A stretch of 32,157 nt of DNA from an uncultured archaeon (GTDB lineage: Archaea; Asgardarchaeota; Lokiarchaeia; Sigyniarchaeales; SOKP01): NCBI GenBank assembly GCA_964629395.1, contig CAZVTX010000003.1:1-32157 (forward strand), given 5' to 3'. Made by a program: the position numbers and the translations under genes. The notes beneath the pieces are model-generated. The model did no database searches and was not told the DNA's origin. It saw only the letters and a program-made list of their open reading frames with translations. Shown here piece by piece: positions 4,157 to 16,020 of the stretch (within the stretch, counting starts at the first letter, position 1; the number at the start of each line of letters is the position of its first letter).

Positions 4157-5014
4157 ATGAAAAAAATTTTAGACGGTAAAAAATTAGCCGAGAAACTTAA
4201 TTTAGAACTTAAAGAAAAAATTTCGGAAATTTATAATAAAATAGGTAAAAGACCAAAATTAGCTACTATTCTAGTAGGTGATAATCCCGCATCAAAAGTA
4301 TATGTAAATATAAAACATAGAACTTGCAAAGAAGTTGGGATTGAATCATTATCTATAGAACTTAATGAAAACATCACTAAACAAAAACTTATAGAAGAAA
4401 TTGAAAAACTCAATAAAAATCCTGATATCCATGGGATCCTTCTCCAATTACCATTACCTAAAAATTTGGCACCTTATACTTCAGAGATTTTAGAAAAAAT
4501 TGATTATAATAAGGATGTCGATGGGTTCCATCCAATTAATAGAGGAAAATTATTTGATTATAATGAAGAATTAGCTCCATGTACACCCAAGGGAATTATT
4601 GCTTTATTAGAACATTATAATATAGATCTTAAAGGTAAAGAAGTGGTTGTAATAAATCGATCTAACTTAGTCGGAAAACCGTTAATTTTTATGCTGTTAA
4701 AAAGAAATGCAACGGTAACAGTTTGCCACACATCCACAGTTAATATTGAAAAACATATTGGTAGAGCCGATATCTTAATAGTTGCAGTTGGCGTACCCAA
4801 ATGGAAGAAAATCTCGAAAAATACGATAAAAAAAGGCGTTATTATAATTGATGTCGGTATTAATAAAATAAACGGAAAATTATGCGGTGATGTTGATTTT
4901 GATGAAGTATATGAGAAATGTAGTTATATTACGCCGGTTCCTGGAGGTATCGGCCCCTTAACGGTAAGCTTTTTACTTCAAAATACATTTACCGTTTTTA
5001 ATAAAAATTTATAA
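4157..5014 (+). CDS. folD: Bifunctional 5,10-methylene-tetrahydrofolate dehydrogenase/cyclohydrolase
   Basis: 285 aa. The strings ILDGKKLAEKL...PKLATILVGDNPASKVYVNIKHRTCKEVGI, HGILLQLPLP, DVDGFHPIN, VVVINRSNLVGKP and ITPVPGGIGPLTV are the standard FolD layout. Confidence 0.92.
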   Translation: MKKILDGKKLAEKLNLELKEKISEIYNKIGKRPKLATILVGDNPASKVYVNIKHRTCKEVGIESLSIELNENITKQKLIEEIEKLNKNPDIHGILLQLPLPKNLAPYTSEILEKIDYNKDVDGFHPINRGKLFDYNEELAPCTPKGIIALLEHYNIDLKGKEVVVINRSNLVGKPLIFMLLKRNATVTVCHTSTVNIEKHIGRADILIVAVGVPKWKKISKNTIKKGVIIIDVGINKINGKLCGDVDFDEVYEKCSYITPVPGGIGPLTVSFLLQNTFTVFNKNL

Positions 5015-12849: not shown

Positions 12850-12899
12850 ATATATAAGTTGAAACTTACTTATAATTATATAAGATTAAACTTATATAT
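12850..12899. repeat. Nested dyad-symmetric element built from TATAAG/CTTATA half-sites, in the spacer upstream of the ECF S-component gene
   Basis: The outer arms ATATATAAGTT (12850..12860) and AACTTATATAT (12889..12899) are perfect reverse complements. Inner palindromes are TAAGTTgaAACTTA (12855..12868) and CTTATAattaTATAAG (12869..12884). A direct ATCAAAA repeat flanks the element at 12842 and 12902. Confidence 0.55.
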
Positions 12900-12908
12900 T
12901 GATCAAAA

Positions 12909-13523
12909 ATGAATGAAAAATTTGATTCAAAAGAAAATAAATTTAAATCTAATTATAAACAATTTTTAGGTTATTTTTTACCGACAAATCCCGTTGTTAT
13001 TTCAATCACCGCAATCTTTGCTGCTTTAACATGTGTTCTTACAATGATAATATCTATTCCAATACCAGCCACGCAAGGTTATATCAATATCGGTGATGCT
13101 GCCGTTATGATAACAGGCTTATTATTTGGACCGATAATAGGCGGATTAGCGGGTGGAATAGGTTCAATGTTAGCGGATATATTTTTAGGATATACAATTT
13201 ATGCTCCAGCAACTCTAATTATAAAAGGATTAGAAGGATTTTTAGTAGGATTTATTTCGGATCCTAAAAATCGGGAGAAATTACATATTAGAGATTTTAT
13301 TGCAGTAATTATTGGTGGAATGGTCATGGTATTGGGATATTTTCTTTATGAGATTATCCTTTGGGGTGTTGAAATCGCTTTAATTGAAGTATTTCTAAAT
13401 GGTATCATTCAATTCGGTTTAGGTGCAACAATCGCAATAATTTTTACCTTAACGGCAAGAAAGAATATTACGGATAGTCTTAATCAAGTATTCGAGAAAG
13501 TATTTGTTGTAAACGATTCATAA
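12909..13523 (+). CDS. ECF-transporter S-component-like integral membrane protein (substrate unknown)
   Basis: 204 aa with about 5-6 TM segments. INIGDAAVMITGLLFGPIIGGLAGGIGSMLADIFLG is typical of ECF substrate-capture subunits. No EcfA/T genes are nearby. Confidence 0.65.
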   Translation: MNEKFDSKENKFKSNYKQFLGYFLPTNPVVISITAIFAALTCVLTMIISIPIPATQGYINIGDAAVMITGLLFGPIIGGLAGGIGSMLADIFLGYTIYAPATLIIKGLEGFLVGFISDPKNREKLHIRDFIAVIIGGMVMVLGYFLYEIILWGVEIALIEVFLNGIIQFGLGATIAIIFTLTARKNITDSLNQVFEKVFVVNDS

Positions 13524-14957
13524 TAATGTAATAAGAGTATTTAATGCATCAATTACCTTTTTCCCATTTTCCGTTATAAAATAAAAAACTTTTTTTCCTT
13601 CTTTTTTGCGAATTATAAGATTTTTTTGTTCTAATTCCTTTAAATGTTGATAGATTGCAGCTCGACTAATAGAACCAATTATTTCTTTTAATTTTGTTCC
13701 GTTAATCCCTTTTTTTTCCGCCATTCGAATTTGGGATAATATTTTTAATTTTGTACTTAAGATGGCACCCATACCAGCGGTTTTAGCTCTTGAAGATAAT
13801 GCCTCTAATACATAAGGTGCCTTTAATCCACTTCCGGTAATTATACAAACGACTTTATCATTTTTTATATCAATTAAATCCTCTTGGATTAAAGAATTTA
13901 TAGCTGCAATCGTCATGGCGGAGGCAGGTTCTGCAAAAATTCCTTCGTTATTAATTAATTCTTCTACTGAATTTAAAATTAGATTTTCAGGAATGGCAAT
14001 TGCAAAACCATTATTTGTTTTTAATATATCTAAGACTAAATCTTTATACATAGGTTTTTTAACTAATACTCCTAAAGCGATAGATTTTGAAAATCGCTGG
14101 TGTATTTCGACTACATTTCTCTCTTTTTCTATAAAATCATCAACAATTGGAGCTAATCCCTGAGGTTGAACGCTAGCAAATTTAGGAATTTTAGAAATAA
14201 TTTTACTATCTTTAAGTTCTTTAAATCCCTTCCAAAGACTTATTAATAAACCGCCACTTCCAGTAGGTATAATAATCCAATCAGGAAGGCCAATCTCATT
14301 AAATATTTCATATGAAATTGTTTTTTGGGCTTCAATTGTTAAAGGATTAAATTCAGGTGTACATTGATAAAATTCTTTTTTATATTTATCAGATAAGGCT
14401 TCATTTAAGCAATCATCAACGGTTTGCCCCTTAACAATTATTTCCGAATTATAGGCAATCATTTGAGCTTTCTTCCCGATATCAATATCGTCAGGAATAA
14501 TATTTACGCATCTCATTCCTTCTAAGGAGGAATATGCAGCTAATGACGCTCCTTGATTACCATTAGATGCACAAACTACACTATTAAACTCCCAGCTTCG
14601 AGCATGTGAAATTAATAAAGCAGCAGCCCTATCTTTAAAGGAATTAGTTGGATTCTTAGTCTCATCCTTAAAATATAACTTTTTTATACCTAATTTCTTA
14701 CCTAATTTTTTTGATGGTAAACATTTTGTTATCCCCTCTCCCATTGATACGAAAAAATCTTTATCAATTTTAGGGAAGGCAAAAGAAAAATCCCAAAAAG
14801 AAGTTAATTGATTTAATGCTCCAAAATTCTCTCTAAATGAGCTTACATTTGTTTTTACCAGAAGTAAGCCGCCACAATGAGAACATTTATAAATTATATT
14901 ATTCGCTTCTACAATTTTTCCGCATTTAATACATGAAAATTTTACGGGATATGAAAT
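13518..14957 (-). CDS. Threonine-synthase-like fold-type-II PLP enzyme with N-terminal Zn ribbon and C-terminal winged-HTH fusion; apparent ATT start
   Basis: The ORF track gives 13518..14744 (M at 14744). The same frame stays open upstream to a TAA at 14975..14973. That upstream stretch encodes SYPVKFSCIKCGKIVEANNIIYKCSHCGGLLLV, the Zn ribbon found at the N-terminus of archaeal ThrC. The PLP-lysine motif is KNPTNSFKDRAA; other motifs are GNQGASLAAY and IIPTGSGGLL. The last roughly 90 aa form a wHTH (LKILSQIRMAEKKGINGTKLKEIIGSISRAAIYQHLKELEQKNLIIRKKEGKKVFYFITENG). Confidence 0.8.
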   Translation of the reverse strand: MSYPVKFSCIKCGKIVEANNIIYKCSHCGGLLLVKTNVSSFRENFGALNQLTSFWDFSFAFPKIDKDFFVSMGEGITKCLPSKKLGKKLGIKKLYFKDETKNPTNSFKDRAAALLISHARSWEFNSVVCASNGNQGASLAAYSSLEGMRCVNIIPDDIDIGKKAQMIAYNSEIIVKGQTVDDCLNEALSDKYKKEFYQCTPEFNPLTIEAQKTISYEIFNEIGLPDWIIIPTGSGGLLISLWKGFKELKDSKIISKIPKFASVQPQGLAPIVDDFIEKERNVVEIHQRFSKSIALGVLVKKPMYKDLVLDILKTNNGFAIAIPENLILNSVEELINNEGIFAEPASAMTIAAINSLIQEDLIDIKNDKVVCIITGSGLKAPYVLEALSSRAKTAGMGAILSTKLKILSQIRMAEKKGINGTKLKEIIGSISRAAIYQHLKELEQKNLIIRKKEGKKVFYFITENGKKVIDALNTLITLL

Positions 14958-14966
14958 AGAACCGCG

Positions 14967-14974
14967 ACCTCCTT
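14967..14974 (-). promoter_or_regulatory. Strong Shine-Dalgarno AAGGAGGT, 9 nt upstream of an in-frame ATT (14957..14955)
   Basis: The reverse strand reads TAAGGAGGTCGCGGTTCTATTTCATAT. This is the best SD match I saw in the window. It is positioned where an initiation codon is needed for the ThrC-like Zn ribbon. Confidence 0.55.
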
Positions 14975-15094
14975 AATTTTTAAGAATTTTTAAAAAAATA
15001 AATTAGATATCTCAATAATAATAAATTTAATAATTCTTTAAGAATGTAATATATTTATCATTTAAAATCATAATATTTAGTGTATTAAAGGCAA

Positions 15095-15211
15095 ATGAAT
15101 ACCAAAATGAAAATATTTCTGGTTTTTGCGATAATTATAACCGCTATTTTGATATATGGAATTGTTCAGCTAATAATCGATACTGTAAACACATGGAATA
15201 AATATTATTAA
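15095..15211 (+). CDS. Possible 38-aa single-TM micro-ORF
   Basis: MNTKMKIFLVFAIIITAILIYGIVQLIIDTVNTWNKYY*. It is below the ORF-track cut-off. Only the hydrophobic core supports it. Confidence 0.2.
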   Translation: MNTKMKIFLVFAIIITAILIYGIVQLIIDTVNTWNKYY

Positions 15212-15258
15212 GTTTTTTCGCTATTTTTTCCTAAAATTTTTATTGAATTTGATTTATC

Positions 15259-16020
15259 ATGCAAGAATCAAAGATTTTAATATGCGGGCATCGGGGATAT
15301 AAAGGTAAGGAAATTGAAAACACTAAGGCAGCAATTTTAAGAGCAATCGAAGAAAAAATTGATCTCGTTGAAATCGATGTAAGAAAAACCCGAGATGAAG
15401 AACTTGTTTTATTTCATGATAGAAAAATCAATCGCTTATTAAATGGAAAGGGTTTACTTAAAAAATATACATTAAAGGAATTAAAGTCCTTTCAATATGA
15501 AGATGGTCAAAAAATACTAACCTTTAACGAATTTCTCGAATTAATAAAAGATAAAATTATCGGTTTAATCGATATTAAAGCCAGAAAAATCGAAAGAAAA
15601 CTAATAGAGCAAATTAATAAAAAACAAGTAGAAAATCAGGTGATTCTTCAAAGTCTATTCGGGAATATTCTAAAAAAATGTTATAAAATTGCCCCCAATT
15701 TAGAATATGCAAAATATTGTACTTATATAGGAAAATTAGGAAATTTTCTAGGTAAAAAATTTAAATTTCATAAAATAACCGCCCCCTTATTTTTTAAACT
15801 TCTCGTGAAGGGAAGCCCTGCAAAATATATAAATTTAGATGGCCCATTCATATATGATGAATTTATAGATTTGCTTAAACAGAAAAGTTATAAAATAATT
15901 TTAGGTGCCATGAAAACGGAAAAATATTTGAAAAATGTTTTTAAATGGAAAATAGATATAATAAATGCGGATAATCCTGAATTGGTTAAAGAATTTTTAA
16001 AGAATTATCCTAAATGTTAG
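15259..16020 (+). CDS. Glycerophosphodiester phosphodiesterase (GDPD family)
   Basis: ICGHRGYKGKEIENTKAAILRAIEEKIDLVEIDVRKTRDEELVLFHDRKI matches the GDPD HR...EN...A....G.D..E.DV..T.D...V..HD signature. Confidence 0.85.
   Translation: MQESKILICGHRGYKGKEIENTKAAILRAIEEKIDLVEIDVRKTRDEELVLFHDRKINRLLNGKGLLKKYTLKELKSFQYEDGQKILTFNEFLELIKDKIIGLIDIKARKIERKLIEQINKKQVENQVILQSLFGNILKKCYKIAPNLEYAKYCTYIGKLGNFLGKKFKFHKITAPLFFKLLVKGSPAKYINLDGPFIYDEFIDLLKQKSYKIILGAMKTEKYLKNVFKWKIDIINADNPELVKEFLKNYPKC

Follow-up and report, generated by a model that had tools for sequence, protein, structure and literature searches.

The 32,157-nucleotide stretch analysed here (positions 1 to 32,157 of contig CAZVTX010000003.1, assembly GCA_964629395.1; hereafter the window) comes from an uncultured archaeon of the Lokiarchaeia, and its minus strand encodes, at 13518-14957, a protein resembling threonine synthase (ThrC), an enzyme dependent on pyridoxal 5'-phosphate (PLP), which is fused to a C-terminal winged helix-turn-helix (wHTH). 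We consider it likely, from sequence comparison, that this gene specifies a one-component vitamin B6 transcription factor, an archaeal functional analogue of PdxR, and not the threonine synthase of the cell. This reading draws on the domain anatomy of the protein, its altered active site, the linkage of its gene to vitamin B6 genes, and a conserved operator that is lost together with the gene. The original prediction raised the possibility that a fold-type II PLP domain, in parallel to MocR/GabR, forms the basis of a regulator that senses a metabolite, and this idea is well supported by gene context, operator and phyletic patterns. O-phosphohomoserine and threonine, the ligands suggested for it, are poor candidates: other residues stand where ThrC binds phosphate, and the occurrence of the gene does not follow that of the threonine pathway. 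What the data point to is a link with vitamin B6, both its uptake and pdxST, which had not been proposed.

Open reading frame analysis showed 483 open codons (13518-14969, minus strand) preceded by an in-frame TAA. From this TAA down to a Met codon at 14744 the frame holds no ATG, GTG or TTG, and the probable start is the ATT at 14957-14955, 10 nt past an AAGGAGG, with the stop codon at 13518-13520; the N-termini of homologues lie some 8-12 residues ahead of the first Cys. As the ATT follows the AAGGAGG at this distance and lies upstream of the zinc ribbon, the ribbon is almost certainly translated. It spans residues 13-32 (14874-14933) with Cys 13, 16, 29 and 32, is modelled as three short strands with a predicted local distance difference test score (pLDDT) above 90, and is found also in unfused Asgard ThrC proteins. 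In a near-identical NCBI protein record (P0001, 408 aa) the start is placed at an internal Met, and the zinc ribbon is therefore lost from that record. The fold-type II PLP domain, which is the proposed sensor, lies at 13833-14750 (Pfam PALP, residues 74-379, E 6e-63) and contains the SFKDR lysine (Lys112, codon 14636-14634), GNQG and TGSGG; in Foldseek, this core matched the ThrC structures 6cgq, 6nmx and 2zsj at a target-normalized TM score of 0.8.

The last 90 codons of the gene (13521-13790) encode a tail that is missing from every solved threonine synthase matched by the core. A flexible linker (residues ~384-404, 13758-13820; pLDDT below 50 in the full-length model) leads into a C-terminal wHTH with a terminal helix (residues 404-483, 13521-13760), in which residues 425-480 matched the HxlR-type wHTH of Pfam at 28 bits (cut-off 20.8), with further matches below cut-off to HTH_11, PadR, HTH_45, TrmB and MarR. 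In the full-length AlphaFold2 model (pLDDT 85), a disordered stretch at 384-404 separates the zinc ribbon and the ThrC-like core from a domain of three helices, one beta hairpin and the terminal helix, and residues 401-483 modelled alone (pLDDT 93) gave the order helix-helix-helix-strand-strand-helix. Foldseek related this domain to DNA binders of the ArsR/SmtB, MarR and PadR-like types (TM 0.7-0.85), one match being the MepR-DNA complex 4lll. Given the confidence of the isolated model and these matches, a plain helical extension is excluded, and the modelling confirms a genuine winged helix of predicted DNA-binding type. Conservation of the tail equals that of the core across 40 aligned Asgard homologues, with a mean column identity of 77%, and the motif YQHL in the recognition helix (~13626-13664) is invariant; it is present in 232 of the 241 family members collected. 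Hence the anatomy first read from the letters, a core with zinc ribbon, PLP lysine, GNQG and TGSGG followed by a C-terminal wHTH, was borne out by Pfam, AlphaFold2 and Foldseek.

The architecture had been described as unrecognised; it is in fact common and already catalogued. The protein aligns end to end with NCBIfam NF004170 (PRK05638, "threonine synthase"), residues 12-476 against profile positions 3-441 of 442 with the tail included, at 316.8 bits, under the cut-off of 421; other Asgard members reach 422-458. More than 1000 proteins of Asgard archaea and Bathyarchaeia share the fused form. Of 8000 candidates scored in a first protein search, 1263 emerged as relatives; the top 120 (55-97% identity) came from Loki-, Thor-, Odin-, Heimdall-, Hod- and Hermodarchaeia. 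When an Asgard member above the NF004170 cut-off served as the query, Bathyarchaeia, Freyarchaeota and Odinarchaeia were returned. The full-length form is present in about half of the 121 genomes sampled from the phylum, often alongside unfused paralogues, and a scan of species-representative genomes gave 257 loci, the best 80 of which were exclusively bathyarchaeial. Our literature search found no publication on a threonine synthase-winged helix fusion, nor on this family as an archaeal B6 regulator; a survey of archaeal fusions lists cysH-thrC as the sole thrC fusion (PMC11237513).

The proposed target gene lies at 12909-13523 on the plus strand, convergent with the fused gene and overlapping its 3' end by 6 nt. 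It encodes a substrate-binding (S) component of the energy-coupling factor (ECF) type, resembling PdxU2/HmpT: the product matches PF07155 at 127 bits (cut-off 26.7), and its sole PDB sequence match is HmpT (4hzu chain S, E 1e-20), a distant homologue within the same Pfam family. HmpT binds pyridoxamine (PMC4860826), and HmpT and PdxU, both PF07155 proteins, are among the few known prokaryotic B6 importers (PMC9997740). The S gene adjoins the fused gene in 31 of 43 loci (the window, one further lokiarchaeial contig, one bathyarchaeial contig and 40 Asgard loci from more than 20 GTDB families), in convergent, co-directional downstream or divergent upstream layouts, and in Bathyarchaeia it follows directly downstream in 67 of 80 species loci. 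Three lineages lacking an adjacent S gene have pdxS or pdxST next to the fused gene, either as an operon fused gene-pdxS-pdxT (genome G007), with the fused gene divergent from pdxST (G041), or with pdxS nearby on the same strand (G097), and a distal operon in G048 joins an S gene to pdxS. PdxS itself was found in 23 of the 121 genomes and not in the source genome (G000, 3.58 Mb); within the family of the latter (f1) it occurs only in genus g3 (g2 to g5 denote genera), from which both the fused gene and the S gene are absent. Uptake and salvage of B6 are plausible in G000, as it carries one Phos_pyr_kin kinase and two EcfT genes.

Upstream of S genes, Lokiarchaeia carry an 18-bp palindrome, TATAAGTT-N2-AACTTATA. 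Two such operator-like dyads precede the S gene of the window: dyad A, an imperfect copy at 12853-12870, and dyad B at 12879-12896 (TATAAG-N6-CTTATA), which ends 12 nt before the S-gene ATG and is the single exact pattern match in G000. In a scan of the whole genome with a position weight matrix (PWM) trained solely on other lokiarchaeial genomes, dyad B ranked first (21.1) and dyad A third (18.2), and the next unrelated background sites scored 14.8 or less. Dyads stand ahead of S genes across families, often as two tandem copies, with the form TATAGG-N6-CCTATA in other Asgard families and variants CAAGT-N-ACTTG in Odinarchaeia; in Bathyarchaeia the spacer before the S gene holds the palindrome TATAGTT-N2-AACTATA, whose AGTT-N2-AACT core, shared with the Asgard palindrome, is present in 57 of 66 spacers. 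This common core is paralleled by an invariant A(I/V)YQHL in the recognition helix. The same element accompanies pdxS: a dyad was found between pdxST and the regulator in G041 (18.8 bits), upstream of the operon of G007 (12.6 bits) and upstream of the distal pdxS of G038 and G076, and two dyads each precede pdxS in G097 and the S-pdxS operon in G048. No pdxS promoter among 12 from genomes without the fused gene scored above 1.6. Two complete g5 genomes have lost the fused gene and kept the S gene, at which no dyad was found. In one of the two (G071), a 57-residue remnant akin to the zinc-ribbon region lies just downstream of the S gene (L105:2092-2262, minus strand). No dyad scoring above 4 was found in 14950-15260, upstream of the fused gene, where autoregulation might be sought. 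The argument for an operator is thus one of position, rank with an independent matrix, and conservation.

Based on these observations, we propose that the ThrC-derived domain is a sensor whose retained cofactor site (Lys112 in this protein) most likely accommodates PLP or a different B6 vitamer, and that the flexible linker connects it to the winged helix, which, presumably as a dimer, would recognise the palindrome in a sequence-specific manner. The two copies lie 12-56 nt upstream of the S-gene ATG, over the expected core promoter with TATA box and B recognition element, and, judging by operator position only, the protein would repress rather than activate: when B6 is plentiful, the liganded form would block access of TBP/TFB and switch the importer off. 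The choice of PLP as effector follows from the retained cofactor site.

Several observations weigh against this interpretation. The Schiff-base lysine is present in all 110 motif-matching members of the clade to which the window protein belongs, which would also suit a working enzyme, and core identity between Asgard classes, at 58-65%, is unusually high for a mere sensor. The S component is a putative B6 importer with a substrate assigned by homology only, and for HmpT itself the initial prediction was a thiamine precursor. In 9 of the 43 loci, S gene and pdxS are both absent from the neighbourhood, and the related genomes entering all these counts are non-independent samples. As for the operator, the exact-pattern enrichment, in window or genome, is not significant alone, with about one chance occurrence of the exact 12-base pattern expected per genome; the half-sites contain TATA, so that common archaeal promoter sequence may account for some of the signal; and the dyads upstream of pdxS in family f8 are too divergent for PWM scoring.

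The conserved lysine bears on the idea of a trigger enzyme, in which the Lys-retaining clade would catalyse a PLP reaction other than threonine synthesis and also regulate transcription, as do RbkR, BirA and PutA. Four solved ThrC structures and eight unfused zinc-ribbon Asgard ThrC proteins have in common STGNT, NPxRxEGQKT, GNAGN and TG(H/N)GLKDP, at which all fused members carry SNGN(Q/L/M), NPL(T/V/I/A)xEAQK, GSGG and TGSGLKA; with NPLTIEAQKT, SNGNQ and GSGGL, the window protein departs from the canonical phosphate site accordingly. The replaced residues, namely the Arg of NPxRxEGQKT, the second Thr of STGNT and the Asn of GNAGN, are those that we take to surround the phosphate of O-phosphohomoserine in the Thermus thermophilus ThrC complex. 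The PLP-site residues are preserved in the fused proteins; together with Lys112 they are invariant in the 40 aligned homologues, and the zinc ribbon is kept as in true ThrC. RbkR, listed as bifunctional (PMC8305020), gives an archaeal precedent for an enzyme-regulator. However, three substrate-phosphate positions are replaced, the gene context offers no candidate reaction, and a sister clade from Bathyarchaeia, Odinarchaeia and Freyarchaeota has, at the Schiff-base position, Arg in 113 of 120 members, Met in one and Lys in none. As this clade shares the gene context and operator type without the Schiff-base lysine, catalysis is dispensable for the common role. A tree built on the catalytic core alone groups the fused proteins in a single clan (support 100/100), with the Lys-type proteins as one clade nested among the Arg-type. 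We therefore regard a trigger enzyme as unlikely. The same low standing is given to its more specific form, in which the Lys-type clade would perform PLP chemistry on some amino compound, with formation of the external aldimine serving as a signal that integrates cofactor and metabolite, and the Arg-type clade would be the pseudoenzyme end state. Residual catalysis, in the sense of the moonlighting enzyme first suggested, is possible in the Lys-retaining clade, given its strong conservation. If the family senses B6 vitamers, as we favour, the Arg-type clade may bind its cofactor non-covalently or prefer another vitamer.

A regulator of some other micronutrient importer, for instance for pyrimidine or a thiamine precursor, would be in keeping with the first prediction of hydroxymethylpyrimidine for HmpT and with an S component that lies under every NCBIfam cut-off, so that no such model specifies its substrate. 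In Bathyarchaeia, three of five contexts have, after the regulator and S gene, a gene related to aminoimidazole ribonucleotide (AIR) synthase (AIRS and AIRS_C; L081:6048-7067, L082:6280-7302, L083:6298-7218), and its weak similarity to ThiL could be read in the same direction. The product is, however, below the cut-offs for HypE, ThiL and SelD, without any NCBIfam assignment, and HmpT binds pyridoxamine. Moreover, pdxS/pdxT adjacency with the same dyad in three lineages, the distal S-pdxS operon, and the complementarity of PdxS and the regulator/S module within the family all argue for B6, and we judge control of another importer to be improbable.

At first sight, the annotation suggests that the protein is an ordinary threonine synthase whose accessory winged helix plays no regulatory role: it passes TIGR00260 (173.4 bits, cut-off 167.1), aligns with NF004170 end to end and has ThrC as its best PDB matches. 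Yet the TIGR00260 pass is marginal, and the orthologues in G008 and G049 (genus g2) fall below the cut-off at 145-156 bits; the phosphate-binding Arg, the Thr of STGNT and GNAGN are all replaced. The g2 and g4 genomes (G008, G049 and G040; 99-100% complete) keep the fused gene, and phyletic scans of the genomes of these genera that carry it found no homoserine dehydrogenase, TIGR02535 kinase or thrB; g3 has homoserine dehydrogenase, kinase and a different, class-II-like thrC, and lacks the fused gene. No thr gene is linked to the fused gene in the 43 loci or in the bathyarchaeial loci, in which B6 genes are its recurrent neighbours. A housekeeping role had seemed plausible as the protein is the sole TIGR00260 match in G000, which also has homoserine dehydrogenase and the TIGR02535 kinase; this was rejected in view of the phyletic scans and of a separate canonical class-II-like thrC in the same genome, the presence of another such gene having been singled out beforehand as worth checking. 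The last ~100 codons of this thrC are found at C154:8012-8314 (minus strand), running off the contig end, and it was therefore missed by family-model scans of the assembly. Very probably, then, the fusion protein is not the threonine synthase of the cell, and we give hardly any weight to an ordinary ThrC. A thrC of the C154 type lies 1.3 kb from homoserine dehydrogenase in G030. Within f1, g3 combines pdxS, homoserine dehydrogenase, the TIGR02535 kinase and the class-II thrC, most of which are absent from g2 and g4, and this suggests that closely related lokiarchaeial genera differ sharply in amino-acid and vitamin autonomy.

The view that the palindromes are mere TATA elements and the adjacency has no regulatory meaning is the least credible of all: the half-sites do include TATA, divergent pairs require two opposed TATA boxes and the window shows no enrichment of the exact pattern, but conservation reaches past the TATA (AAGTT-N2-AACTT), tandem sites occur in non-divergent layouts, the window sites come first and third genome-wide with a matrix from other genomes, and where a genome lacks the fused gene, its S and pdxS promoters carry no such sites.

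A B6-responsive regulator of this design would belong to an already known class, that of cofactor-sensing regulators derived from enzymes. Like PdxR, MocR and GabR of Bacteria, the family joins a PLP-enzyme fold, reused as effector domain, to a winged helix, and it resembles PdxR also in the content of its regulon, here predicted by comparison, with pdxST and a PdxU-type importer (PMC5320631) and repeated operator boxes. MocR proteins, however, combine an N-terminal GntR-type wHTH with a fold-type I aminotransferase domain, whereas the fused proteins have an N-terminal zinc ribbon, a ThrC-like fold type II domain and a C-terminal ArsR/PadR/HxlR/MarR-like wHTH. The MocR family is reported absent from Archaea (PMC5320631), and the fusion family is an independent invention, an analogue of PdxR and no member of MocR. 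With class I ThrC proteins bearing a zinc ribbon (TIGR00260; NF004170/PRK05638, PRK08197) it shares the fold, the ribbon, the PLP lysine (in this clade) and the cofactor-site residues, and the NF004170 model itself already includes the C-terminal domain; unlike ThrC, the family has replaced the substrate-phosphate residues, does not track the threonine pathway and includes a sister clade without the lysine. ThiR is an archaeal one-component regulator of thiamine that derives from an enzyme. RbkR, which acts on riboflavin, likewise couples a metabolic domain to a DNA-binding domain and controls genes for synthesis or uptake. The folds of both are nonetheless unrelated to that of the fusion proteins, and the HTH of RbkR is N-terminal; moreover, the sensor domains of RbkR and ThiR come from the pathway of the vitamin itself, whereas the sensor proposed here comes from an enzyme that uses the cofactor.

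Regulation of the PdxST pathway has been called poorly characterised in a recent preprint (10.1101/2025.11.07.685452). If our reading is true, it fills a gap in archaeal B6 control for Asgard archaea and Bathyarchaeia, where bacteria use the MocR-type PdxR, and it provides a second, independent PLP-enzyme fold that has turned into a DNA-binding sensor, with the Lys-type and Arg-type clades forming a natural series from enzyme to pseudoenzyme. The practical weight of the finding comes from the systematic annotation of the family as threonine synthase, a name that should be corrected, as it inflates predictions of threonine prototrophy in Asgard metabolic reconstructions. Most of the sampled Asgard genomes have the importer and regulator module and no PdxS, and the scarcity of PdxS alongside this module suggests partner organisms as the source of B6, a point of relevance to cultivation and syntrophy. 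With the predicted operator, the hypothesis can be put to a direct test.

Further genes may belong to the regulon. The second-best site in G000 (18.8 bits; C85:6318-6335, equivalent to L061:3319-3336) ends 2 nt before the ATG of a gene for a 302-aa membrane protein (L061:3339-4244, plus strand) that has no Pfam match and weakly resembles drug/metabolite transporters (DMT), and is followed by a gene for a TIGR00295-like HD-domain hydrolase (4279-4854, plus strand); both genes may be additional members. A PWM match at C14:10621, inside the coding region of PTH2, was taken as chance. Finally, in two Asgard families without adjacent B6 genes, the regulator is divergent from a GINS (Sld5/Gins51-like) gene (L021:5477-6025, L026:5447-5992, L027:5465-5992, L041:3346-3912), which is followed by a gene for a protein of ~690 aa.

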